Shown piece by piece: positions 5,674 through 18,036 of a stretch of DNA of 32,000 nucleotides. The position numbers were made by a program, and so were the translations under genes. The notes below the pieces were generated by a model. It ran no database searches, was not told the DNA's origin, and saw only the letters and a program-made list of their open reading frames with translations. Numbering within the stretch: the first letter of the stretch is position 1; the number at the start of each line of letters is the position of its first letter. Source of the stretch: Geopsychrobacteraceae bacterium (GTDB lineage Bacteria > Desulfobacterota > Desulfuromonadia > Desulfuromonadales > Geopsychrobacteraceae); NCBI GenBank assembly GCA_963677215.1, contig OY781919.1, forward strand, positions 2,411,877 to 2,443,876. The letters are read 5' to 3'.

Positions 5674-7350
5674 TCACTGACGGGTCAACGACCGGTACCT
5701 GATCCGGTGCGGCTGATCGGCGTCACGGCCCAGGCGGCGTTTGCGGTCTTCTTCGTATTCGGAGTAGTTGCCTTCGAACCAGACAACCTGGGAATCCCCT
5801 TCAAAGGCCAGCATGTGGGTAGCGATGCGGTCGAGGAACCAGCGGTCGTGGCTGATGACCACGGCGCAGCCGCCGTAGTTTTCCAGACCTTCTTCAAGAG
5901 CGCGCAGGGTGTTGACGTCGAGATCGTTGGTCGGTTCGTCAAGCAGCAGGACGTTGGCTTCTTCGCGCAGCATCTTGGCCAGGTGGACGCGGTTACGCTC
6001 GCCACCGGAGAGGACGCCGACCTTCTTCTGTTGATCGGAGCCGGAGAAGTTGAAGCGGGCCACATAGGCGCGCGAGTTGAGCGATTTGCCACCCATGACG
6101 ATGGTGTCCTGACCACCGCAGACCTCTTCCCAGATGGTCTTGTTGCTGTCGAGTTCACGCCCCTGATCGACGTAGCCTAGCTTGACCGTTTCGCCAACCT
6201 TGAAGCTGCCGGCATCCGGCTGTTCCTGGCCGGTGATCATCTTGAACAGGGTCGACTTACCGGCGCCGTTGGGGCCGATGACGCCGACGATCCCGCCAGG
6301 AGGCAGGTTGAAGGTCAGGTCGTCGATCAGCAGCCGCTCACCGAAGCCTTTGCTGATCTCCTTGGCCTCAACAACGATGTTACCCAGACGTGGTCCCGGC
6401 GGAATGAACAGCTCGAGGGTCTGCTCCTTGGCCAGGCCTTCGTTGCCGAGCAGCTTCTCATAGGAGTTTATGCGGGCCTGGGATTTGGCGTGACGCCCTT
6501 TAGGCGACATGCGAATCCACTCGAGCTCACGCTGCAGGGTCTGCTGACGTTTGCTCTCGGCTTTTTCTTCCTTGCGCAGACGTTCCTGCTTCTGTTCCAG
6601 CCAGCTGGAGTAGTTGCCCTTCCATGGAATTCCGTGGCCGCGGTCAAGTTCAAGAATCCAGCCGGCGACGTTGTCAAGGAAGTAACGGTCGTGGGTGACC
6701 GCGATGACGGTGCCTTGGTAGCGCTGCAGGTGCTGCTCCAGCCAGGCGACGGTTTCGGCGTCCAGGTGGTTGGTGGGCTCATCCAAAAGCAGGATATCCG
6801 GTTTGTTCAGAAGCAAACGGCAGAGGGCGACGCGGCGTTTTTCACCACCGGAGAGGTTCTTGACCGGGGTCTCAGGCGGCGGGCAGCGCAGTGCTTCTTC
6901 TGCCAGTTCCAGGCGGGAGTCGAGCTCCCAGGCGTCGGCGGCGTCCAGTTTGTCCTGCACTACGGCCTGGCGGGCGAGCAGCTTGTCCATGTCGCAGTCT
7001 GGGTCGGCAAAAGCGTTGTTGATCTCCTCGAATTCGGCGAGCAGATCGACGACCTCCTGAACCCCTTCCTTTACAACTTCACGGACGGTCTTGCTGTCGT
7101 CGAGCTGTGGTTCCTGCTCCAGGTAGCCGACGCTGTAACCCTCGGAGAGTACGGCTTCTCCCTGAAATTCCTTGTCGACACCGGCCATGATTTTCAGCAG
7201 GGTCGACTTACCGGAACCGTTGAGACCTAAGACGCCGATCTTGGCACCGTAGAAGTAGGAGAGGGAGATGTCCTTGATGATCGGCTGTTTGTTGTAGCTC
7301 TTGCTGACCTTCATCATGGAGTAGATGACTTTTTTTGTGTCTTCGCTCAT
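5674..7350 (-). CDS. ettA: ABC-F ATPase, energy-dependent translational throttle protein EttA, 558 aa
   Basis: Two ABC cassettes ([38 protein letters not shown]; [38 protein letters not shown]) and no TM domain. Size and the N-terminus [23 protein letters not shown] are typical of EttA. Confidence 0.93.
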
Positions 7351-7437: not shown

Positions 7438-8586
7438 TCACTTTGGCTGACTGAGCTGTTCCCGGGCGTTCTCTTCCATCTGTTCTATGGCAATGAGAAA
7501 CGATTCGGTCAGTTGCGGGTGAAGCAGTTGCCCGCTGCTCTCGGTCATGATCTGCTTGATCTGGGCAAAGGTCAGCGGCTCCCTGTAGGTCCGTCTGGTA
7601 CGCAGCGCGTCATAAACGTCGGAGATGGTCGTCATGTAACTGCAGGTATTGAGTTGCCAATGGTCCGGAGTCTGGGGATAGCCTTTGCCGTTGTAGCCGA
7701 TATGGTGTTCGTAGGCGTTGACCACGGCCAGCTTCGGCGCGCCCGGGCAGCGCAACAGATATTCGGCGCCAAGTTGCGGGTGACGTTGCATCTGGGCCCA
7801 CTCTTGAGGATCCAGCTTGGTTTGCTTGTTGAGAATGTCCGGTGAAATGAACATCTTACCGACATCGTGGAGCATCGCTGCGATGCCGATCTGATTGAGG
7901 ATCTGGCCTTCAAAGCCGAGCAGCCGGGCCTGCGCCAGATTGAGCAGGCAGATGTTGGTTGAGTGGATGTAGGCATATTCATCCATGGAGCGCAGCGGTG
8001 CCAGGGCCAGCAGGGCCGAGCTGTGGGTGCTGAAGGCTGAGACAAAATCGTTGACCAGCTCAGAGATCCCGCCGATGTCGACATGTTTGCTGCGGCCGGC
8101 GGAAGCCTGAACCTCGTAAAACCGGTCTTCACCGTGCAGGCGGATTTCTGCCGCTGTTTCGGCCTGGGGAGAGGGGGGCTTCTGTCTGCTGCGCACGGCA
8201 ACACGGCCAAAACGGATGTGTTCCGTTTTTCTCGGTTCTACTTTGCGGCTGTGCTTGCTCAGGGTTGTCGCCAGTCTGATCATCTCTTCACTAGAGACCC
8301 CGGAGCTGATTTCCAGAAAGCTGATCTGCTGGGCTGTCAGGGTTTCAATCAGCCGGTCTGTCATCATGTTGCGCGGCACCGGCTGGTCATTGAAGATCAG
8401 CTCGTTGTTGACTATCTTGAAAGTGACCATACTGTGATCATTCATCAGCAGGCGCATTTCTTCGCGAGCCTGCTGGCAGAGGTGATGGACCTGAGGGTGC
8501 TCGCTGTCGTAGAGGGAGATATTGGCCGCCGCAGTTGTGATCTGGCGGATAAAGGCGGCCAGGTATTTCTGTTCCTTGAACGTCAT
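7438..8586 (-). CDS. HD-GYP-type metal-dependent phosphohydrolase with an uncharacterised N-terminal domain (cassette A, small subunit), 382 aa
   Basis: Motifs DEYAYIHSTN, HDVGKMF, HPQLGAEYL, HHIGYNGKGYPQ and SDVYDALRTRRTYRE appear in HD-GYP order. The ATG overlaps the upstream gene's TGA as ATGA at 8583-8586. Confidence 0.88.
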   Translation of the reverse strand: MTFKEQKYLAAFIRQITTAAANISLYDSEHPQVHHLCQQAREEMRLLMNDHSMVTFKIVNNELIFNDQPVPRNMMTDRLIETLTAQQISFLEISSGVSSEEMIRLATTLSKHSRKVEPRKTEHIRFGRVAVRSRQKPPSPQAETAAEIRLHGEDRFYEVQASAGRSKHVDIGGISELVNDFVSAFSTHSSALLALAPLRSMDEYAYIHSTNICLLNLAQARLLGFEGQILNQIGIAAMLHDVGKMFISPDILNKQTKLDPQEWAQMQRHPQLGAEYLLRCPGAPKLAVVNAYEHHIGYNGKGYPQTPDHWQLNTCSYMTTISDVYDALRTRRTYREPLTFAQIKQIMTESSGQLLHPQLTESFLIAIEQMEENAREQLSQPK

Positions 8587-10715
8587 TTTTGCCCCCGATC
8601 TGTCAGGCGCTGCAGCTGCTTTTCGACCAGTTCCCTTTCGGTCTTGTCGCGACCGCTCTGCAGGGAATGCAGAAGCGGTAGCACGCTGCGTCTGGGATAG
8701 CCACCCAGGGAACGGATGATTTCCAACTGAAAATCTTTTTCCCGGCGGCGGCGGAGCAGTTTCTTCTGCAGCAGTCTGGCGAGGACCGGGATGGTCTGTG
8801 GTTTGCCGATCATGCTTAGGGTCTCAAGGGTTTTTCTGCGGATCTGCAGATCCGGATCGCGATTGTGGTCGATCTGCAGCAGGAGATGCAGTTGGGCCAG
8901 AACCTTGCCGTCATGACTCTGGTCGGCGATTTCAACGGCTGCGGAGATCGATTCCCGGTTTCCACCCGAGAGGTCTTTGAGTAATTGCCGGTTGGCCATC
9001 ATCGGGTCGAAGCGGAAGATGATGCGCAGTGCTTCCTGGCGGACCTTGGGGTGCTCATGTGTTGCGAGGGGGCGGATTTCCCTGATCGGAATGGTTTCCT
9101 TGTCGAGCTTCGAGAGGATCAGCAGTACGTTGCGGACCAGATACCAGCGCTGATCCTTCAAGGTCTGGGTCAGTAGCTGAGCTGCTTTTTTGCCGAGCTC
9201 CTCCAGCAGGCGGACCCAGATCCTGCGTTTGGAGAGTTGCTTTTCTTTCCCGAGGCGGTTGATCAGCAGTTCGGCATAAGGCTCGCCAACCTCGAAGATG
9301 TAGGCACTGATCTCTCCCCCCTTTTCCGCGCCCCAGATTTCGACATGGTCAAGTACGTCGGACATGAAGAGCTCACTGGTCTGCAGGGCCAGGACGGTTT
9401 CATCCAGAAAGCGGGCATTGGCTTTGCCGCTGTAGAGGTATTCGGCCCAGTTGACAAAAATTTCGCGCAGCGTCGTGAAGTCCCCTGTATCCAGGTAGAA
9501 TCTGGCCATTTCGGTCAGGTTATGTTGCAGGCTTTTTTCCGCTTCGGAATCGACACCGTTACTGAGCATGTTGAAGATGATATTGACGCACTGATTTTCA
9601 ATCGCCAGGGTTTTCAGGCTGTTTCTCAGCTTTAGTGCGACATGTTCCGGAAGGGAACTTGTCATCTGCTGGTTGAGGATGTTTTTCAGGGTGGTCTGGT
9701 ACACATCGGGCACAAACTGGCTGTGGCTGTCTTCGAGCAGGAGAATGTCGATCTGCGCATTCAGAACATCGGTGTCGATTTTTTCAATGTCCAGTGCAGC
9801 CGGAGTCGTCAATATATCGTCGTTGTCGGCAAATTCCTCGAGCAGGTCAATAAGTCTGGCCGAGACTGTCTCCTTGTTTTGGGATTGACGATGAATGGCT
9901 GTTTTAAGCAGATGCTGCGGAAACGAATTGAGGAACTGCGAGGTCAGGTCGGGGTGTCCGGACAGGGCATTGAGGATGCTGTCGGTGAATCTTTCCTGGA
10001 TCTGCGGGTGCAGTTGCTCAACGACTTCAGCGACCTGAAGGGGAACCTCTGCTTCTTCCCTCGGTTCAGACGCAAACCTGGAAATCAGATTGCTGATCAG
10101 CGGATCCAGGTTGTCCGTGTGGCATTTTCCCTGGTTGATGGCTCTGGCGATCTCGGCACTTTCGATGGTATCGGAAAGACTATGTTTCTCATTGAGAAGT
10201 TCTGTGATGAAATCGTTCCAGGGGGAATCGCTGGAATCGCCGTCATCGGCCTGAAAGGCTCCAAAGTCGACCAGAACGATCTGAATCTGGTGGATCCCCT
10301 GTTGCTGAAGCTGTTTTGGCAGTTCCTGATTGACTCCTGTTTCGTTGCCTTCTGTGCTGAGGAGCTGATAGAAGCCGAGTACCTCTTTGGCGGAGAGGTT
10401 CCGGAAAAAGCGGATCGAGGCGATTCGGTATGAAGACAGGAATTGGGCGAAGTCGCGGATGGCTCGATTGCCGGCCTCCTGCCACTGCCCTTCAAAAAGA
10501 ATATTGTCGGGTGCGATCCCGAGGTGGATGTCCTGCCCGGACTGACAGGTTTGGGCCAAGGCGCGCAGAACCGCATCACAACTCTGGGTTAGTTGTGGGT
10601 GCCCTGGCGGATACAATTTCAGCTGACGCTGAAAAATATTGAGGTCCTGGATGAATCCGGAAAGCTGGTGGCGATTGTTTGCCGTGGCAGTTTTGGATTC
10701 TCCTGACATTAACAC
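8583..10715 (-). CDS. Large uncharacterised protein with C-terminal HEAT-like repeats (cassette A, large subunit), 710 aa
   Basis: Uninterrupted 710-codon ORF. The GTG start has GGAGG 7 nt upstream. The C-terminus has HEAT/PBS-like repeats (HPKVRQEALRIIFRFDP; DPDLQIRRKTLETLSMIGKPQTIPVLARLL). It is paralogous to the 715-aa ORF upstream. Confidence 0.85.
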   Translation of the reverse strand: MLMSGESKTATANNRHQLSGFIQDLNIFQRQLKLYPPGHPQLTQSCDAVLRALAQTCQSGQDIHLGIAPDNILFEGQWQEAGNRAIRDFAQFLSSYRIASIRFFRNLSAKEVLGFYQLLSTEGNETGVNQELPKQLQQQGIHQIQIVLVDFGAFQADDGDSSDSPWNDFITELLNEKHSLSDTIESAEIARAINQGKCHTDNLDPLISNLISRFASEPREEAEVPLQVAEVVEQLHPQIQERFTDSILNALSGHPDLTSQFLNSFPQHLLKTAIHRQSQNKETVSARLIDLLEEFADNDDILTTPAALDIEKIDTDVLNAQIDILLLEDSHSQFVPDVYQTTLKNILNQQMTSSLPEHVALKLRNSLKTLAIENQCVNIIFNMLSNGVDSEAEKSLQHNLTEMARFYLDTGDFTTLREIFVNWAEYLYSGKANARFLDETVLALQTSELFMSDVLDHVEIWGAEKGGEISAYIFEVGEPYAELLINRLGKEKQLSKRRIWVRLLEELGKKAAQLLTQTLKDQRWYLVRNVLLILSKLDKETIPIREIRPLATHEHPKVRQEALRIIFRFDPMMANRQLLKDLSGGNRESISAAVEIADQSHDGKVLAQLHLLLQIDHNRDPDLQIRRKTLETLSMIGKPQTIPVLARLLQKKLLRRRREKDFQLEIIRSLGGYPRRSVLPLLHSLQSGRDKTERELVEKQLQRLTDRGQK

Positions 10716-10814
10716 CCTGGTTCCTCCCCCCGTATACTGTTTTATTCAATAAATCCTAATTTTATGAGAATAGACCCTTTTGCAGTTTTTTAGAAGAGGT
10801 TCATTGATGTGTTG

Positions 10815-11951
10815 TTAAGTTTTTGCCATGTCCCGATCGAGCTCGCTGATCGTTCCCAGAAAATTGTAGGTCAACTGCGGATGCAGTTTGTTGCCCGCAA
10901 GGTTGAGCATGATCGAAATGATCTGGTTCAGGTCCAGGGACTCTTCGTAGGCACGATGGGTGCGCATGGCGTCATAGGTATCTGATATGGCCGTCAGGTA
11001 GGAACTCAAGTGCTGCAGCCATGGCCTTGAGGTCTGCGGGTAGCCGGCATTATCAAACCGCATATGATGTTCATAGGCGGTAATCACGGCAAGTCTGGGT
11101 ATCCCCGGGCAGCCAGTCAGATATTCGGCGCCGAGACGCGGGTGTTGCTGCATGATCTCCCATTCGGCCCCAGTCAGGGCTTCGTTTTTGGTCAGGATCT
11201 CCGGCGGAATGAACATTTTTCCAACATCGTGCAGCATTGCCGCGATACCGATGTCGTTGAGCAGTTGTCCTTCTATGCCGAGCATTCTGGCCTGGGCGAG
11301 GTTGAGCATGCAGATGTTGGTTGAGTGGGTGTAAGTATACTCGTCCATGCTGCGCAACGGCGCAATCGCCATCAGGACATCGTTCTGTGAATCGAAGGCA
11401 TTGATGAAACCGGAAACGATCTCGGAGACACCAGCGATATTCAGGGGTTTGTTCTTTCTGATCGTCTGGTAGAGGTCCATGATGCTGTCGGCTTCAGACT
11501 CGGCAATCCAGGTCAGTGGGGATACTGCCGGGCCTGATTCTTCGCCCTTGAGACGGACCTCAATCTTGCCATAGCGGATGTGCTCGGTATTGGTTGGTTG
11601 GTGCGTAGAGTTCTGGATTTTGCTGAGCAGTAGGGCAAGGCCAAGCAGTTCGTCGGCATAGATGCCATCCAGGATCTGCAGGTGTGAGACTCCGCTGCGA
11701 TTCAGGGCGCTGACAAGACGTTTGACGGCATTGCTCTGCTCGACGGGCTGATTGTCAAAAATCAGCCGGCTATCGATAACTTTCAGGACGATTTCATTAT
11801 GTTTTTTGAGCAGCTCATGGGCGATCTGCAATGCTTGGTTATTGAGGCGCAGCACCTGCCGATGGTTGGCGTGATAGAGGGATGCATTGGCGGATGCCGT
11901 GGTCAACAGGCGTAAAAAGGTCTGAAGTTGTTCCTGTCTTGAGCCGCTCAT
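10815..11951 (-). CDS. HD-GYP-type metal-dependent phosphohydrolase with an uncharacterised N-terminal domain (cassette B, small subunit), 378 aa
   Basis: Motifs DEYTYTHSTN, HDVGKMF, HPRLGAEYL, HHMRFDNAGYPQ and SDTYDAMRTHRAYEE. ATGA overlap with the upstream gene at 11948-11951. Clear paralog of 7438-8586. Confidence 0.88.
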   Translation of the reverse strand: MSGSRQEQLQTFLRLLTTASANASLYHANHRQVLRLNNQALQIAHELLKKHNEIVLKVIDSRLIFDNQPVEQSNAVKRLVSALNRSGVSHLQILDGIYADELLGLALLLSKIQNSTHQPTNTEHIRYGKIEVRLKGEESGPAVSPLTWIAESEADSIMDLYQTIRKNKPLNIAGVSEIVSGFINAFDSQNDVLMAIAPLRSMDEYTYTHSTNICMLNLAQARMLGIEGQLLNDIGIAAMLHDVGKMFIPPEILTKNEALTGAEWEIMQQHPRLGAEYLTGCPGIPRLAVITAYEHHMRFDNAGYPQTSRPWLQHLSSYLTAISDTYDAMRTHRAYEESLDLNQIISIMLNLAGNKLHPQLTYNFLGTISELDRDMAKT

Positions 11952-14095
11952 AGGTTTGTTCTCCGTTTTTCCTGCACCTCTTTGGCGGCGTTTTTGTAAG
12001 GCCCTTTGGCCATTTCATCAAGCAGTTTGTCGGCTCCTGAGCCGGGAAATGTCAGCAGCGCATTGAGGATCTGCTGCTGCAGGGACTTCAGGTGGCGGGA
12101 CTTGAAAAGTTTCGGTCCGCTCAGCAACAGCCGGCGGAAGATGGTCAGCGATTCCGGCCGTCCACAGCGGGAGAGGGCTGCGATCACGGCTTCGACGTAA
12201 TGCAACTGCTCGGCGGTTTCGATACTCATCTCCAGCTGCCTGTGCAGCTGACTGAAGACGCCCGAATCCTGACTCAAGTGCACCAGCCCAAGAGCCGCGT
12301 TTCGCGCACTGAGATCGGCGTTCTGCAGTTCCGTGATCAGCAACCGGTTGGCTGTCGCCGGATTGCAGCGGAACAGGTTGCGGATGACCTCGGCCCTGAC
12401 TCTCTGATCGGGATGGTCTGCGTACTTCAGGTTGGCCTTGATGCTCGCCGGGGTCTGCTCTTCGCCTAAGACAATCAGCAGATTGCGTAGCAGATACCAG
12501 GGTTCAGGCCTGAGGGCCTGGAGGACCTTCTGCTGAACGTCCCCGTCAATCTTTCTGAGCAGGCCCATCCAGAGCATGCGTTCCTTCTGTTCTGTCGCGT
12601 TGGAAAGACGGTCGATGATCGGGTCGCAGTATGGTTCGCCGACGAACAGAATATAGTTGCTGATCTGCTCCCATTTCTGCTCTTCCCAGAGCTCAAAACT
12701 GTCGAGAATGTCGTTCATGAAACTGGACTGGGTGTGACCGGCAATCAACTGCTCATCGAGAATGCTGGTCTGGGCATGGTTGCTGTACAGGTAGTTGTAC
12801 CAGTTCCTGAAGACCGCCCGCAGGCTGATGAAATCACCGGTATCGGCAAAGAAACGGGAGAGCTCCATGAGGCTCTGCTGGATGTGAGATTCCTGCTCCT
12901 TGTCCAGCGGAGAGAGCAGCAGCTCGAAAATGACTGCCGCGAAATGGTGTTCGATCGACTGCTCCTCCATGTCCTGCTTCAGTTGCAGCTTTTCCGCTTC
13001 TGACATGTGGCCATGGAGGTCGCCGGCAAGCATGGTGTTGAGGGCCTGCTGGTAGCTGTCGGGAAGAAAGAGATCCTCCTGTTCTTCGCTGAACAGGGTC
13101 TCCAGCCGGGCTTTGACGACGCTTGATTCCATGCGTGGTGAGTTGAGGCGGATCTTGTTTTTCTGGTCAGTATCCGAGGCGGCCAGAACCTCGACCAGCC
13201 CTAGCAGACGCTGGGAGATCTGCAGCTGTGAACCCTGATTCGAGGCAAAGCTGTCGTGCAGTAGCCGGGGGGAAATCTTTTTCAGTGCGTTCTCTGCCTG
13301 GTCCTGATGACGGTCGATCACCTTGAGGGTGCTTTCCAGGAATGCCTGCCGGGCCCCGGGCTCAAGCTTGAGCAACAGCTCATTGAAGACCTGATCCGCT
13401 TCCGATTCCGGAGTGGTGATCAGCCGTTTTTCAACATAGTTGGACAGGGATTGCCGGCACTGCTCACGATCATCGCGGGTCCCTTTGAACCTGCTGTTGA
13501 TGATTTCGGCAATGACTGACAGGTTGCTGGAAATTTCCGAGAATCCCAGGTCGAGGATTCCCTGCTGCATGCCATAGATGAAATTTTCCCAGAGCAGTTG
13601 CTCTTCTTTCGCGTCGCCTCTTCCGACCTGAAACGCATTGTAGTCGATGGTGATGATCTGGATATGACGAATCTGGTGCTGTTCGAGCAGTTGGGCAAAA
13701 CCGCCGGAATTTTCAATGCTGATCCGGTCCGAACAGAGCAGCTTGCAGAAACAGAGCAGCTCTGCTTCTGTCAGCCCTTTTGCGAAATTGATGGTTGCAA
13801 TGCCAAGCTCGGCAAAGAAAGCGGCGAAGTCCCTGTTGGCGGGGTCGTTTTTGTCAAGCCAGGTCTGCTCAAAGAGGATTCCGGACGGGGATATGCCCAG
13901 GGTGAGTAGAGGAAAGTTCTCCATAATCAGCGCGAGTAGCGACATGGCTTTTTCGATGCTGGCCGTGATCTGGGGGTGCTCATCCGGATAGAGGGCCAGG
14001 TTGCGCTGTGCTGTTTTCAGTTCCTGCAGAAAAACAGTCAGCAGAGGACGATCCTGTCTCCTGGTGTCAGTGCTTGATATGGCGTTCCGGTTCAA
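11948..14095 (-). CDS. Large uncharacterised protein with C-terminal HEAT-like repeats (cassette B, large subunit), 715 aa
   Basis: Uninterrupted ORF with a TTG start and AGAGG 6 nt upstream. HEAT-like repeats are present (DQRVRAEVIRNLFRCNPATANRLL; ADLSARNAALGLVHL). It shares sequence islands with the 710-aa paralog (DTGDF, VGEPY, WYLLRN). Confidence 0.85.
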   Translation of the reverse strand: MNRNAISSTDTRRQDRPLLTVFLQELKTAQRNLALYPDEHPQITASIEKAMSLLALIMENFPLLTLGISPSGILFEQTWLDKNDPANRDFAAFFAELGIATINFAKGLTEAELLCFCKLLCSDRISIENSGGFAQLLEQHQIRHIQIITIDYNAFQVGRGDAKEEQLLWENFIYGMQQGILDLGFSEISSNLSVIAEIINSRFKGTRDDREQCRQSLSNYVEKRLITTPESEADQVFNELLLKLEPGARQAFLESTLKVIDRHQDQAENALKKISPRLLHDSFASNQGSQLQISQRLLGLVEVLAASDTDQKNKIRLNSPRMESSVVKARLETLFSEEQEDLFLPDSYQQALNTMLAGDLHGHMSEAEKLQLKQDMEEQSIEHHFAAVIFELLLSPLDKEQESHIQQSLMELSRFFADTGDFISLRAVFRNWYNYLYSNHAQTSILDEQLIAGHTQSSFMNDILDSFELWEEQKWEQISNYILFVGEPYCDPIIDRLSNATEQKERMLWMGLLRKIDGDVQQKVLQALRPEPWYLLRNLLIVLGEEQTPASIKANLKYADHPDQRVRAEVIRNLFRCNPATANRLLITELQNADLSARNAALGLVHLSQDSGVFSQLHRQLEMSIETAEQLHYVEAVIAALSRCGRPESLTIFRRLLLSGPKLFKSRHLKSLQQQILNALLTFPGSGADKLLDEMAKGPYKNAAKEVQEKRRTNL

Positions 14096-14209: not shown

Positions 14210-15223
14210 GTGCTAGATTTCCGCCGATATGGACACTCATTATTTAATGAATGGCTTATGAGCCCGCAGACGCATTTTGATGTTGGTGATGCGGACCTGG
14301 CCCAGCAGCTTTTTGGCCGGCAGAATAAGCATCTAAAACAGATAGAAAAGAAACTCGGCATTCGGGTCGGCAGCCAGGGGACGGTTATCCACCTCTCCGG
14401 CGATGAGGCTCAGGTCGGGGTTGCCAGGCGCCTGCTTGAAGAGCTGTGCACCCTGCTTCGCGAGGGGATGCCGCTCTACCCGGCTGATGTCGATTACGCC
14501 ATTCGCATCCTCTCTGCGGATTCTTCCGCGTCTCTGAAAGATATCTTCTTTGATACTGTCTTCGTTTCGGCCCGCAACAAGATGATTGCGCCGAAAAGCA
14601 TCGCCCAGAAGAGTTATGTTGACAATATTCGTGAAAACCATGTTGTCTTCGGTGTCGGCCCGGCCGGAACCGGCAAGACTTATCTGGCCATGGCGATGGG
14701 CGTGGCCTCCCTGCTGCGTAAGGAAGTCAGCCGGATCATGCTTGTCCGACCTGCTGTCGAAGCCGGGGAAAAGCTCGGTTTTTTGCCTGGCGATCTGGCC
14801 GAGAAGGTCAATCCGTACCTGCGTCCACTCTACGATGCCCTTTATGACATGCTCGATTTTGACAAGGCCAGGGAGTTGGTTGAAACCGGTATTGTCGAAG
14901 TAGCCCCTCTGGCCTTCATGCGCGGCCGGACCCTGAATGACGCTTTTGTCATTCTTGACGAAGCGCAAAATACCACCGCAGAACAGATGAAGATGTTTCT
15001 CACCCGCCTCGGTTTTGGTAGCCGGGCCGTCATTACCGGGGATGTGACCCAGGTCGATCTGCCCCGGGGGCAGCAATCGGGGCTGCTGCATGCGATGGAA
15101 GTGCTGGTCGGTGTGCGCGGGATTGAGTTTACCTATTTCAGCGATCGGGATGTCGTTCGTCATCCGATTGTGCAAGCGATTGTTCAGGCCTACCAGAGAG
15201 CTGAAAAGCACGAAGACTCCTGA
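14210..15223 (+). CDS. phoH: PhoH-family ATPase (PhoH/YbeZ)
   Basis: Walker A GPAGTGKTYLAMAMG and Walker B FVILDEAQN. Motifs ITGDVTQVDLP and VVRHPIVQAIV are typical of PhoH/YbeZ. The gene sits upstream of ybeY as in many bacteria. Start is ambiguous: GTG at 14210 or ATG at 14258. Confidence 0.9.
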   Translation: MLDFRRYGHSLFNEWLMSPQTHFDVGDADLAQQLFGRQNKHLKQIEKKLGIRVGSQGTVIHLSGDEAQVGVARRLLEELCTLLREGMPLYPADVDYAIRILSADSSASLKDIFFDTVFVSARNKMIAPKSIAQKSYVDNIRENHVVFGVGPAGTGKTYLAMAMGVASLLRKEVSRIMLVRPAVEAGEKLGFLPGDLAEKVNPYLRPLYDALYDMLDFDKARELVETGIVEVAPLAFMRGRTLNDAFVILDEAQNTTAEQMKMFLTRLGFGSRAVITGDVTQVDLPRGQQSGLLHAMEVLVGVRGIEFTYFSDRDVVRHPIVQAIVQAYQRAEKHEDS

Positions 15224-15266
15224 TGCGAGCTCTGGTGGAGGGCGGCCTTCATCTTTTTGAGGACAT

Positions 15267-17678
15267 ATGACGAAAGACGAGAAACAGAAAGCCCTGCAGA
15301 GGCGAAGCGCCTTTTTCAGCGATGGTGTTCAGGGTTTGCGGAACCGCAAGGGGGCCAACCTTGGAGGCTGGCTGCTGCTGATCGTTGCCGTGCTGTTGAC
15401 CTTTATCATCATACCGAAGGGTGGGCTGATTCCGGATTACTATGCTCCCGGCGATGTCGCTTCCCGCAATATCAAATCGCCCCGCGATCTGCTGGTCGAA
15501 GACCTGCCTTTGACAGAAGCCAAGCAGCTTGAGGCTGCCAACGCGGTTGCTCTGGTCTATCAGTTTGATGTGGCTGGTGGGAGTCAGGCTGTTGAACGGC
15601 TGGACCGGGGGCTGCGCGGCCTGTTGAATTATCAGCTCAGCAGCAGGGCCCTAAATGGACAGGATGTTCTTCCCCAGCTGGAGACCGACCTTGGCATCCC
15701 GCTGACCAGTGAAGAGTTTTTGCCTTTGCTGAAGCTGCCCCTGACAATCGAGCTGATCGACCAGATCAGGTTAGCTTTAGAGACTGTTTTTCACCGGCCG
15801 ATCGTTGCCAATCAGCAGATCTATCAGAGCGACCAGGACAAGGGACTGGTGGTTCTCGATTGGGCGAGTGGAGAGCCGCTTGAGTTGAAGATTGGTGATC
15901 GGGTGATTGGTCTCACCCAGGCTCTGAGCGAAGTTCAGACACAATTGGGGCAGCTCATGGGGCTTGCGGAGGGGCAGCGCCAGGTTCTGGCGCGCCTCGT
16001 TCAGCAACTGCTGCGGCCCAGCCTGATCTACGATCAGGATGAAACCGAAGCACGACGCCAGTTGGCCCGCGAGCAGGTCGCGCCTGTTCTGTTTCAGATC
16101 AAGAAGGGGGAGATGATCGTCCGCGAAGGGGAACGTATCTCCGCCGATCAGATCCTCAAGCTCAAGGCTATTCGTAATTCCGGACTCGACAACCGTAACC
16201 TGCAGACGGCCGCGGGGCTGTTGATCTGCATCCTGCTGCTGATCTATGTCGGCTATCATTTTGCCAACGGCAACATCAGTAAGTTTCGTCCAGATCAGCG
16301 TGACCTGCTGTTTCTGTCGAGCGTTTTTCTGGTCTATTTCGTTCTGGTCAAGGTCTCGATCCTGATTGTTTCCGCTATCGGCAACAGTTTTACCTACATC
16401 GATTCAACAGCTTACCTCTATGCGGTCCCTTTCGCGCTGGGTGCCATGCTGGTGCGGATCGTTCTCAATTCCGAGACCGCGTTCATCTTTTCCGTCGGCT
16501 GTGCCGTGCTGGTCGGTATTATCATGGGCAATAGCCTGCTGATGGCTCTGTTTGTCCTGATCGGCAGTCTGGTCGGGGCGCACGGAGTCCGGCACTGTCA
16601 GCAGAGGACCAGGCTTTATCGGGCCGGGCTGTGGATCGGCCTGACCAACGCCGCTTTGCTGCTGGGCATGCATTTTCTGTCGGGACGGGTTTTCGAGCTG
16701 CAACTGCTGTGGAAGCTTGGTCTCGGGTTTTTCGGTGGTATCGCCAGTGCCGTTTTTGTCAACGGCACGGTCCCGCTGGTCGAATCCTTCTTCAAGTACA
16801 CGACCGATATCAAGCTGCTTGAACTGGCCAACATGAACTCACCGGTATTGCGCCAGCTGATGATCGAGGCTCCCGGCACCTATCATCATTCGATCCTGGT
16901 CGGCAATTTGGCCGAGGCCGGGGCCGAAGCGATACGGGCCAATCCGTTGCTGGCTCGGGTCGCAGCCTATTATCATGATATCGGCAAGATCAAGAAACCG
17001 CTCTATTTTATCGAGAACTCTGGCGGTCAGCGAAACAAGCATGACAAACTGGCGCCGTCGATGAGTGCCCTGATCCTCACCTCACACGTCAAGGACGGAG
17101 TGGAACTGGCCCGCGAGCACAAGCTGGGATCGGAGCTGATGGAAATCATCCAGCAGCATCACGGCACCTCGCTGATCAAATTTTTTTATGACCGCGCCAA
17201 GAACCTGTCCGACCCGGAGGTCCATCAGGTTGATGAGCGTGATTACCGCTATCACGGGCCGAAACCTCAGACTCGGGAAGCGGCGCTGATTATGCTGGCC
17301 GATGCGATCGAGGCCGCCAGCCGGACACTGACCGATCCGACCCCGGCACGGATTCAGGGGATGGTGCAGAAGCTGATCAACAATATCTTTATTGATGGCC
17401 AGCTCGATGAGTGTGATCTTACCCTGAAGGACCTGAATCTGATCGCCAGGAGCTTCAATCGTGTGCTGTCGAGTTCATTCCATCATCGCGTCGATTACCC
17501 CGAACCCGTACATATCGTCAAGGACAAGGCCGAGCCTGAGGACAAGGTGGCCGTCAAAGAGAAAGTGAAACAGAAGAATGCGAATTCAGATCGACAACCG
17601 GCAGAACAAACAACGGATTCTGAAGCGTCCCCTGCGCAAGATAGCCCAGAAGATCTTAGACGTCTCGGGATATCCTAA
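15267..17678 (+). CDS. pgpH: 7TM-receptor HD/HDIG membrane phosphohydrolase (PgpH/YqfF family, the cyclic-di-AMP phosphodiesterase family), 803 aa
   Basis: N-terminal TM segment plus extracytoplasmic region, then a multi-TM block. The C-terminal HD domain shows YHHSILVGNLAE..YYHDIGKIKKP..QQHHGT..LADAIEAASR. It occupies the conserved phoH-pgpH-ybeY position. Confidence 0.88.
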   Translation: MTKDEKQKALQRRSAFFSDGVQGLRNRKGANLGGWLLLIVAVLLTFIIIPKGGLIPDYYAPGDVASRNIKSPRDLLVEDLPLTEAKQLEAANAVALVYQFDVAGGSQAVERLDRGLRGLLNYQLSSRALNGQDVLPQLETDLGIPLTSEEFLPLLKLPLTIELIDQIRLALETVFHRPIVANQQIYQSDQDKGLVVLDWASGEPLELKIGDRVIGLTQALSEVQTQLGQLMGLAEGQRQVLARLVQQLLRPSLIYDQDETEARRQLAREQVAPVLFQIKKGEMIVREGERISADQILKLKAIRNSGLDNRNLQTAAGLLICILLLIYVGYHFANGNISKFRPDQRDLLFLSSVFLVYFVLVKVSILIVSAIGNSFTYIDSTAYLYAVPFALGAMLVRIVLNSETAFIFSVGCAVLVGIIMGNSLLMALFVLIGSLVGAHGVRHCQQRTRLYRAGLWIGLTNAALLLGMHFLSGRVFELQLLWKLGLGFFGGIASAVFVNGTVPLVESFFKYTTDIKLLELANMNSPVLRQLMIEAPGTYHHSILVGNLAEAGAEAIRANPLLARVAAYYHDIGKIKKPLYFIENSGGQRNKHDKLAPSMSALILTSHVKDGVELAREHKLGSELMEIIQQHHGTSLIKFFYDRAKNLSDPEVHQVDERDYRYHGPKPQTREAALIMLADAIEAASRTLTDPTPARIQGMVQKLINNIFIDGQLDECDLTLKDLNLIARSFNRVLSSSFHHRVDYPEPVHIVKDKAEPEDKVAVKEKVKQKNANSDRQPAEQTTDSEASPAQDSPEDLRRLGIS

Positions 17679-18036
17679 GGGCGAACTGTCGATCGTTCTG
17701 CTCGACAACGCCGGGATTCAGGAGGTCAACCGCGATTACCTGGGGCGCGACTGGCCGACCAACGTCATTTCCTTTTCGATGCTTGAAGGTGAGGGGGCCG
17801 GTATCCAACCCGATCTGCTCGGCGATGTGATTATCTCGACTGAACGTACGGCCAGCGATGCCGACGAGGCCGGGATCCCTTTTGAGCATGAACTCTGGTT
17901 CCTGCTACTGCACGGCATCCTTCATCTGATCGGTTATGATCATGAGCGGGGTAGTGAAGAGGACGCTGCGCAGATGGAAGCCAGGGAAAAAGAAATCTTT
18001 TCCATACTTGTTAACGAATTTTCTATTTCTGCATAG
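17578..18036 (+). CDS. ybeY: Endoribonuclease YbeY (16S rRNA maturation)
   Basis: Zn-binding motif HGILHLIGYDHE. Typical N-terminus MRIQIDNRQ..ELSIVLLDNAGIQEVNRDYLG. 152 aa. Confidence 0.93.
   Translation: MRIQIDNRQNKQRILKRPLRKIAQKILDVSGYPKGELSIVLLDNAGIQEVNRDYLGRDWPTNVISFSMLEGEGAGIQPDLLGDVIISTERTASDADEAGIPFEHELWFLLLHGILHLIGYDHERGSEEDAAQMEAREKEIFSILVNEFSISA

Follow-up and report, generated by a model that had tools for sequence, protein, structure and literature searches.

Most HD-GYP proteins begin with N-terminal regions that databases do not recognize, and the control of these proteins is an acknowledged gap (10.1101/2021.11.05.467447). Among the closest described systems, the Bd1817 family (DUF3391-HD-GYP; PDB 3TM8) carries a cytoplasmic domain of ~120 to 140 amino acids (aa) and unknown function directly N-terminal to HD-GYP; DUF3391 has been proposed to promote a dimeric, active enzyme, and its topology is that of four strands followed by two long helices (10.1101/2021.11.05.467447). 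In PmGH and other GAF-HD-GYP proteins, as well as in DUF3369 (GAF-like)-HD-GYP proteins, an N-terminal input domain likewise precedes the HD-GYP domain. Here, we analyzed a 32,000-nucleotide (nt) stretch of DNA (the window) from a Geopsychrobacteraceae bacterium (assembly GCA_963677215.1, contig OY781919.1, positions 2,411,877 to 2,443,876 of the forward strand), in which four minus-strand open reading frames (ORFs) occupy positions 7438-14095 in the order LargeB, HD-GYP-B, LargeA, and HD-GYP-A. The region is composed of two paralogous, translationally coupled two-gene cassettes, each pairing a large HEAT-repeat protein with a smaller HD-GYP protein, and all four proteins have a homologous N terminus of ~135 to 150 residues in common, designated domain X. 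Considering the sequence comparisons and structure models together, we give an even chance to what we consider the best reading, namely, that X is a pairing module, by which an apparently active HD-GYP enzyme would be docked to a scaffold or sensor of the HEAT type through a heterotypic X:X contact.

Within each cassette, the two genes share an ATGA stop/start overlap with a Shine-Dalgarno-like run upstream (LargeB/HD-GYP-B at 11948-11951 and LargeA/HD-GYP-A at 8583-8586). LargeA shares 30% identity with LargeB over the full length, and HD-GYP-A and HD-GYP-B are 46% identical. Pfam searches of the four proteins recognized HD_5/HD in the small proteins, within their C-terminal half (HD_5 at 51.8 bits in HD-GYP-A; HD_5 at 56 bits and HD at 37 bits in HD-GYP-B) and HEAT_2 near the C terminus of the Large proteins (43.5 bits in LargeA versus a cutoff of 27.7; 26 bits, slightly below the cutoff, at residues 523-586 of LargeB) but no family in the N-terminal ~150 residues of any of them, with NCBIfam giving the same picture. 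The PDB relatives of HD-GYP-A included PmGH (4MCW; E, 6e-19) and V-cGAP3 (5Z7C; E, 4e-15), while the Large family profile matched alphaRep/HEAT chains (E, 4e-46), locating the repeat array in the C-terminal ~180 residues. No relative of the ~350-residue middle region of the Large proteins was found with the family profile, no hidden second X was detected by hhalign in the rest of the Large protein (probability 0.4%), and neither GGDEF nor AAA_16/STAND (signal transduction ATPases with numerous domains) nucleoside triphosphatase (NTPase) domains were found by Pfam in the four window proteins.

The earlier note on this DNA, made from the letters alone, had proposed that all four proteins start with one domain carrying an LY-x3-H(P/R)Q motif and that the first ~110 to 150 residues of the large and small proteins align with each other. 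Both proposals hold: each protein has its own version of the motif (Table 1), MAFFT aligned the four N termini nearly gap free across ~125 columns, and the similarity is statistically significant. BLASTP between Large and small proteins gave 22% identity over 75 to 116 aa, with 31% over 29 aa for LargeA and HD-GYP-A (E, 1.5e-8 to 0.02), and Smith-Waterman scores of the four Large-small pairs exceeded those of 2000 shuffles with z values of 7.1 to 17.1 (Gumbel p, 6e-5 to 2e-10). A hidden Markov model (HMM) built from the Large class only (81 N-terminal domains) matched 14 of 14 HD-GYP-type proteins at 33 to 55 bits, with E values of 7.5e-10 to 5e-3 when the library size is set to 1.8e9. The small-only HMM matched 77 of 81 Large proteins, whole-library E values for the two directions reaching down to 1e-10, and hhalign joined the two class profiles with a probability of 99.0% (E, 7.2e-18; 131 columns), identity between the classes now being 18 to 22%. 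The members of the class profiles were picked by a mixed four-sequence profile, which somewhat favors cross-recognition, while the shuffle test on the window sequences is free of that selection. The second conserved stretch described in the earlier note is present in all four proteins, although the string given as "GIASIRFF..." really reads "RIASIRFF..." and the two Large strings had been listed in swapped order; the segment further downstream is found as described (IRHIQI, IHQIQI, EHIRFG, and EHIRYG). The HMM-derived boundaries of X (Table 1) essentially agree with the coding segments proposed there.

An exhaustive HMMER search with the four-sequence profile against 1.84 billion representative proteins returned 2,896 matches at an E of ≤1e-3 and 439 at an E of ≤1e-10, so that the X family comprises at least 2,896 clusters at 50% identity. 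Word-index homologue searches returned nothing with the isolated N termini and only 2 unnamed fragments with a 49-sequence profile. Moreover, no relative was found when 49 diverse X sequences and their profile were compared with Pfam, NCBIfam, and PDB sequences; the domain, which the earlier note could not name, thus maps to no characterized family there. The architecture census, covering the best 150 of the 2,896 matches, revealed that X is confined to c-di-GMP (cyclic di-GMP)-linked architectures and occurs in three contexts, namely, X-helical-HEAT, X-HD-GYP, and GGDEF-STAND-X(-X)-HEAT. X joined to a Large-type C-terminal part (X-LargeC) made up 100 of the 150, X-HD-GYP 15, X-only fragments 24, tandem X-X(-LargeC) proteins 9, and read-throughs 2. 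Four tandem proteins of ~1,400 aa (P0076, P0101, P0106, and P0127) are GGDEF-AAA_16-X-X-HEAT by Pfam, and three others of 826 to 1,009 aa, which may be N-terminally cut, showed X-X-HEAT only. In addition, two loci encode single-X GGDEF(-AAA_16)-X-HEAT fusions (L044, 1579-5280, and L073, 2208-5699), with AAA_16 over threshold in the former and not in the latter. Polypeptides of the GGDEF-AAA_16-X-HEAT or GGDEF-AAA_16-X-X-HEAT type span ~1,150 to 1,440 aa. The GGDEF-STAND-X-X-HEAT proteins stand alone in their loci (including L088 and L089), with no X-HD-GYP neighbor. By domain composition, the same X-HEAT arm appears to be linked in cis to c-di-GMP synthesis and in trans to its degradation.

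The association of the two genes was traced by a metagenome scan seeded with an 11-sequence Large alignment and read by six-frame HMM scans, which returned 78 loci with 88 Large genes. An X-HD-GYP gene lies directly downstream on the same strand in 78 of these 88, with a median distance of 40 nt from the Large stop to the start of X; in five others the partner is cut by a contig end or frameshift, in one it is present, and two Large genes lie at a contig edge. Overall, ~84 of 86 assessable Large genes have X-HD-GYP immediately downstream, and the two real exceptions are the single-X GGDEF fusions L044 and L073. In the reverse direction, all six look-ups seeded with X-HD-GYP proteins found an X-LargeC (HEAT) gene upstream with an overlap of 4 to 8 nt. 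The pairing is therefore near-obligate in both directions across about 90 environmental loci and down to ~20% identity. No third gene was found to be conserved across the loci.

Duplication of the whole cassette recurs as well. A scan of the genome collection found one related locus (L001), in a Geopsychrobacteraceae metagenome-assembled genome, with the same four genes at 88% identity, and tandem whole-cassette duplications were found there and in many unrelated metagenomic loci (L003, L004, L008, L009, L010, L046, and L059 among them). Both genes of the first cassette are B-like in related loci, and in the second cassette of L004 and L008, whichever gene is complete is A-like. Large and small genes thus cosegregate as A-type and B-type pairs in relatives, indicating that the duplication is old and that the members of each pair have diverged together.

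For X as a pairing module, the mechanism would be as follows. One mRNA would supply both proteins in a fixed ratio, and they would assemble into a heteromer in which the X domains of the HEAT and HD-GYP proteins pack against each other; a target bound by the HEAT arm would control or localize the hydrolysis of c-di-GMP or a related dinucleotide. If STAND proteins are taken as a guide, the X-helical-HEAT protein would be the sensor or scaffold arm and the HD-GYP protein its detachable effector; the X(-X)-HEAT arm, which in relatives is fused in cis via a STAND NTPase to a GGDEF cyclase, may be a general input arm for enzymes of cyclic dinucleotide turnover that is here split from its effector. 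The sequences and models show the homology, the architectures, the strict synteny with overlapping codons, the conserved catalytic residues, and a confidently predicted fold; the X:X contact between the partners, the enzymatic activity, and the direction of regulation are what we infer. The earlier note had offered either hetero-oligomerization or a shared ligand-binding input as the meaning of the common module. The former is strengthened because the coupled pairing is kept in ~90 loci, the cassette is duplicated as a unit, and tandem X-X occurs in single chains, partnerless relatives often carrying two X copies in one chain; the latter is weakened by the position of the conserved residues at helix ends (see below).

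AlphaFold2 modeling of the tandem X-X region of one such protein (P0065, residues 232-565; 9-row alignment) gave a mean predicted local distance difference test (pLDDT) score of 83.7 and a predicted template modeling (pTM) score of 0.71, with a disordered 29-residue linker between the copies, which were nevertheless placed in a defined mutual orientation. A calculation with the TM-score formula yields a pTM of about 0.47 to 0.50 for two well-folded but undocked 145-residue domains in a 334-residue chain, and by the same calculation a pTM of 0.71 implies an expected interdomain error of about 4 to 5 Å. The model supports X:X packing as such, though not specifically heterotypic packing in the window proteins; when scored as Large-type or small-type X, both tandem copies were Large-like.

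Several points weigh against X as a heterotypic pairing module. The pTM argument draws on an alignment of 9 sequences and on a back-calculation of our own. In a mirror-tree analysis of 57 pairs, the partial correlation between the X domains of the Large and small proteins was 0.28, compared with 0.64 when the HEAT region was set against the HD-GYP domain, so the X pair is not singled out. The single-X GGDEF-STAND-X-HEAT proteins (L044 and L073) indicate that X is not always in need of a partner's X, and homodimerization would explain them equally; pairing may thus be homotypic or even absent. P0121, the only seeming Large-to-HD-GYP fusion, is unreliable, and two co-operonic proteins with homologous domains could each bind a common ligand on their own. 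P0121 (L090:3001-4575) had been considered as a Rosetta-stone HEAT-X-HD-GYP fusion and was rejected; it comes from a long-read contig with a fragmented upstream Large gene and is probably a frameshift or read-through artifact. P0111 is another apparent single-chain fusion of a Large C terminus (HEAT) with X-HD-GYP.

AlphaFold2 modeling of residues 1-140 of HD-GYP-A with a 49-row alignment gave a confident structure (pLDDT, 94.4; pTM, 0.86) composed of helices at residues 3-25 and 31-50, strands at 53-59 and 62-65, a helix at 74-85, a strand at 90-94, helices at 99-109 and 111-115, and a strand at 124-127. X is accordingly predicted to be an undescribed α/β domain of ~140 residues, consisting of a hairpin of two long helices, a β-hairpin, a helix, a strand, a helix, and a strand. 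Foldseek comparison of the model with 350,542 PDB chains gave no significant match (best E, 0.37; TM, 0.21), and none was found in BFVD. As to known input domains, GAF and DUF3369 had neither a Pfam match to X nor a significant fold match, and the Pfam Response_reg (REC) family did not match X, the NosR-family NCBIfam match spanning the HD-GYP part only.

Motif conservation was counted on 61 small-class and 123 Large-class nonredundant X sequences. The motif Tyr is conserved in 92% of the small and 97% of the Large class, and the motif His in 72% and 81%, respectively. Asn is the usual substitute for the His, and GGDEF-linked proteins have Ser here in their tandem copies. Only the Large class has a conserved Pro (95%) following the Tyr; for the Glu at the beginning of helix 4, conservation is 62 to 92%. 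In the model, the Tyr closes helix 1, the His/Asn/Ser-Pro lies directly before helix 2, and the Glu is three residues past the Ser/Thr that opens helix 4. N-cap/Pro-N1 and capping-box motifs have the same residue types and spacings as these signature residues. With its polar signature residues at helix termini, the LY-x3-H-P motif seems to have a structural role, apparently fixing the helical hairpin through a turn with an N-cap, rather than forming a ligand site. Class-specific conserved residues of surface type comprise N17, R20, R21, and a D-Y-x-x-F stretch after the last strand in the Large class and R86 and G127 in the small class.

These observations are pertinent to the foremost alternative, a shared sensor, in which the X domains of both proteins recognize one and the same small ligand, each on its own, with nucleotides, cyclic dinucleotides or their products, and metals as examples, and the two proteins are coregulated without touching through X. 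The earlier note had remarked that the domain replaces the usual REC/GAF input, and X indeed occupies the position held by REC, GAF, or DUF3391 in other HD-GYP proteins, GAF, DUF3369, and REC being ligand-binding inputs (10.1101/2021.11.05.467447). Moreover, the Tyr, His, and Glu of X are near-invariant, and the only leanings in the Foldseek results were toward GAF/PHY sensor folds, including the PelD GAF domain. Arg is a residue type frequent in c-di-GMP sites, and helix 1 of Large-type X bears a conserved Arg-Arg. The conserved polar residues, however, map to helix ends and caps with no obvious pocket in the model, and the His is swapped for Asn or Ser, which are good N-cap residues; the Foldseek leanings, at a TM of about 0.1 to 0.2 and an E of >0.05, are nonsignificant and lend no weight; and the Arg-Arg is missing from small-class X. 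Furthermore, a shared sensor explains the obligate adjacency and codon overlap no better than pairing does. We regard this alternative as unlikely, though a real contender.

Somewhat less probable still, in our estimate, is that X serves homodimerization only, such that it dimerizes the HD-GYP enzyme and the HEAT protein separately and the Large-small contact is made via the HEAT repeats or the HD-GYP domain. The mirror-tree result, where the residual coupling was strongest for the HEAT region with the HD-GYP domain, is in line with this idea, as are the single-X GGDEF-STAND-X-HEAT proteins, since GGDEF cyclases need dimerization. HD-GYP enzymes also work as dimers, and N-terminal domains have been proposed to promote the dimeric form (10.1101/2021.11.05.467447). 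Yet the X classes, while still homologous, have class-specific conserved surfaces, which fits a heterotypic interface, and the tandem X-X copies within one chain are predicted to pack; homotypic and heterotypic pairing are, besides, mutually compatible. Highly improbable is the idea that X is a relic of gene origin (5' segment duplication or fission of an ancestral fusion) with no present coupling role, for although domain shuffling is common in signaling proteins and only 18 to 22% identity is left between the classes, purifying selection is clear on both across a family of this size, the pairing has been kept down to ~20% identity, and the fold is confidently predicted.

Residue conservation in the HD-GYP part was counted across 92 X-HD-GYP family members. 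The metal ligands H208, H240, D241, H269, H294, H295, and D323 (HD-GYP-A numbering) and the GYP triplet are 100% conserved, the loop acidic residues D202/E203 are present too, and the c-di-GMP-contacting Lys after the HD is 98% conserved. The Glu of the HHE triplet, elsewhere highly conserved within the canonical HHExh(D/N)GxGYP motif, occurs in none of the 92, being replaced by Leu, Met, Ile, or Ala, which reads as a subfamily signature by which HD-GYP membership is not excluded. Judged by its residues, the HD-GYP domain looks catalytically competent.

The fourth position of the Rxx(R/K) motif has been reported to steer selectivity between c-di-GMP and cyclic GMP-AMP (cGAMP) (10.1101/600031). 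At this motif (approximately residues 332-335), cassette A has the canonical RxxR and cassette B an acidic residue (Table 1), and the acidic residue (RxxE/D) is kept in the B-type orthologues of ten related loci (L001 to L010). Across the 92 members, the fourth position is R in 37, N in 20 (RxxN, ~1/5), E in 11, A in 6, H in 6, and K in 5. The two cassettes may therefore act on different dinucleotides, and their difference at the reported selectivity position offers a natural experiment on signaling specificity. A fuller scenario, which we hold to be doubtful though worth stating, would be a widespread and hitherto unrecognized split sensor-effector architecture in which each HEAT arm, evolutionarily the same as the GGDEF-fused one, recruits and gates its own HD-GYP enzyme by heterotypic X:X docking, and the duplicated cassettes would be insulated pairs, A acting on c-di-GMP (RxxR) and B on, e.g., 3'3'-cGAMP (RxxE/D), in a Desulfuromonadales-type lineage with cGAMP signaling.

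Table 1. Coordinates of the two cassettes, their domains, and flanking features in the 32,000-nt window
Feature	Position	Strand	Description
LargeB gene	11948-14095	-	715 aa; TTG start (14095) in ORF list and public call; identical to public protein P0002
LargeB architecture			X domain, ~350-aa helical middle region, C-terminal PBS-lyase-type HEAT-like repeats
X domain of LargeB	13616-14062	-	~residues 12-160; LYPDEHPQ; X HMM 170 bits
HD-GYP-B gene	10815-11951	-	378 aa; X, linker, HD-GYP phosphodiesterase domain
X domain of HD-GYP-B	11532-11951	-	residues 1 to ~140; LYHANHRQ; X HMM 127 bits
Linker and HD-GYP catalytic domain of HD-GYP-B	10833-11507	-	HDVGK, HHMRFDNAGYP, full metal-ligand set; selectivity motif R-A-Y-E, noncanonical
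LargeA gene	8583-10715	-	710 aa from GTG 10715; architecture as LargeB
X domain of LargeA	10239-10682	-	LYPPGHPQ; X HMM 156 bits
HD-GYP-A gene	7438-8586	-	382 aa; X, linker, HD-GYP domain; identical to public protein P0001
X domain of HD-GYP-A	8176-8586	-	residues 1 to ~137; LYDSEHPQ; X HMM 134 bits; sequence used for modeling
Linker and HD-GYP catalytic domain of HD-GYP-A	7465-8157	-	HDVGK, HHIGYNGKGYP; selectivity motif R-T-Y-R, canonical
PhoH / 7TM-HD / YbeY cluster	14210-18036	+	divergent flank of cassettes; 7TM-HD is 7TMR-HDED, PgpH-like HD hydrolase
Sigma-70-like site	14164-14136	-	immediately upstream of LargeB
ABC-F ATPase gene	5674-7350	-	downstream of cassettes
ORF of 410 aa	4240-5472	-	no Pfam match at E ≤1e-5

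Three of the four proteins have exact or near-exact public matches, and the source annotations read only "HEAT repeat protein" and "HD-GYP domain-containing protein"; the public gene call for LargeA (P0003) begins two codons later, at ATG 10709 (Met3). Flanking genes (PhoH, the 7TM-HD protein, YbeY, the ABC-F protein, and others) are conserved within lineages only. The PhoH neighbor is kept in 8 related loci and the ABC-F neighbor in 7, which looks like lineage synteny rather than part of the system; the 7TM-HD neighbor is another signaling hydrolase of the HD superfamily. Searching the whole 32 kb with Rfam gave no family at the gathering threshold, and promoter- and terminator-like sites around the cassettes were found at chance level.

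Among the described systems, the Bd1817 family is similar in layout, DUF3391 and X being domains of similar length directly N-terminal to HD-GYP. However, the order of elements differs, with strands first in DUF3391 and the two long helices first in the X model. The comparison with DUFs known to precede HD-GYP, which the earlier note had suggested along with HMM building and structure prediction, gave no match to PF11871 (DUF3391) at an E of up to 1 in the four window proteins and 49 X sequences, and 3TM8 was not among the 50 Foldseek matches listed for X nor among the PDB profile matches. DUF3391 proteins, unlike X proteins, have not been described with a partner bearing the same domain. PmGH (4MCW) is the closest solved catalytic relative, and the GAF- and DUF3369-containing proteins resemble the window proteins in having an N-terminal input domain before HD-GYP, whereas X has no Pfam match to either domain and the HHE Glu is never present in the X-HD-GYP family. 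The GGDEF-AAA_16-X-X-HEAT STAND proteins have the same X and a HEAT-type C-terminal arm linked to a c-di-GMP enzyme; in the window, by contrast, the effector, a phosphodiesterase rather than a cyclase, is a polypeptide of its own, and NTPase and GGDEF domains are missing. The PBS-lyase HEAT-like proteins (CpcE/NblB, MTH187, and YibA, as well as the consensus alphaRep) represent the repeat class of the C-terminal ~180 residues of the Large proteins, the NblB match being weak, but unlike the Large proteins they have neither X nor the ~350-aa helical middle, and no link to a cyclic dinucleotide enzyme.

In the searchable literature on HD-GYP with HEAT, GGDEF/STAND/HEAT, and Geobacter HD-GYP proteins, no description of X or of the gene pair was found. 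One of the unrecognized N-terminal regions of HD-GYP proteins can now be defined as a large family for which there is a confident fold model but no solved relative could be detected, and the seed alignments, domain boundaries, and signature residues provide material for a new family entry. The dedicated partner bearing the same domain, together with the STAND-mediated link to GGDEF, leads to a testable hypothesis for the regulation or localization of a class of c-di-GMP phosphodiesterases. Thus, while HD-GYP signaling proteins with N-terminal regulatory domains are known, what the two cassettes add is an undescribed domain family and a strictly conserved partner architecture.

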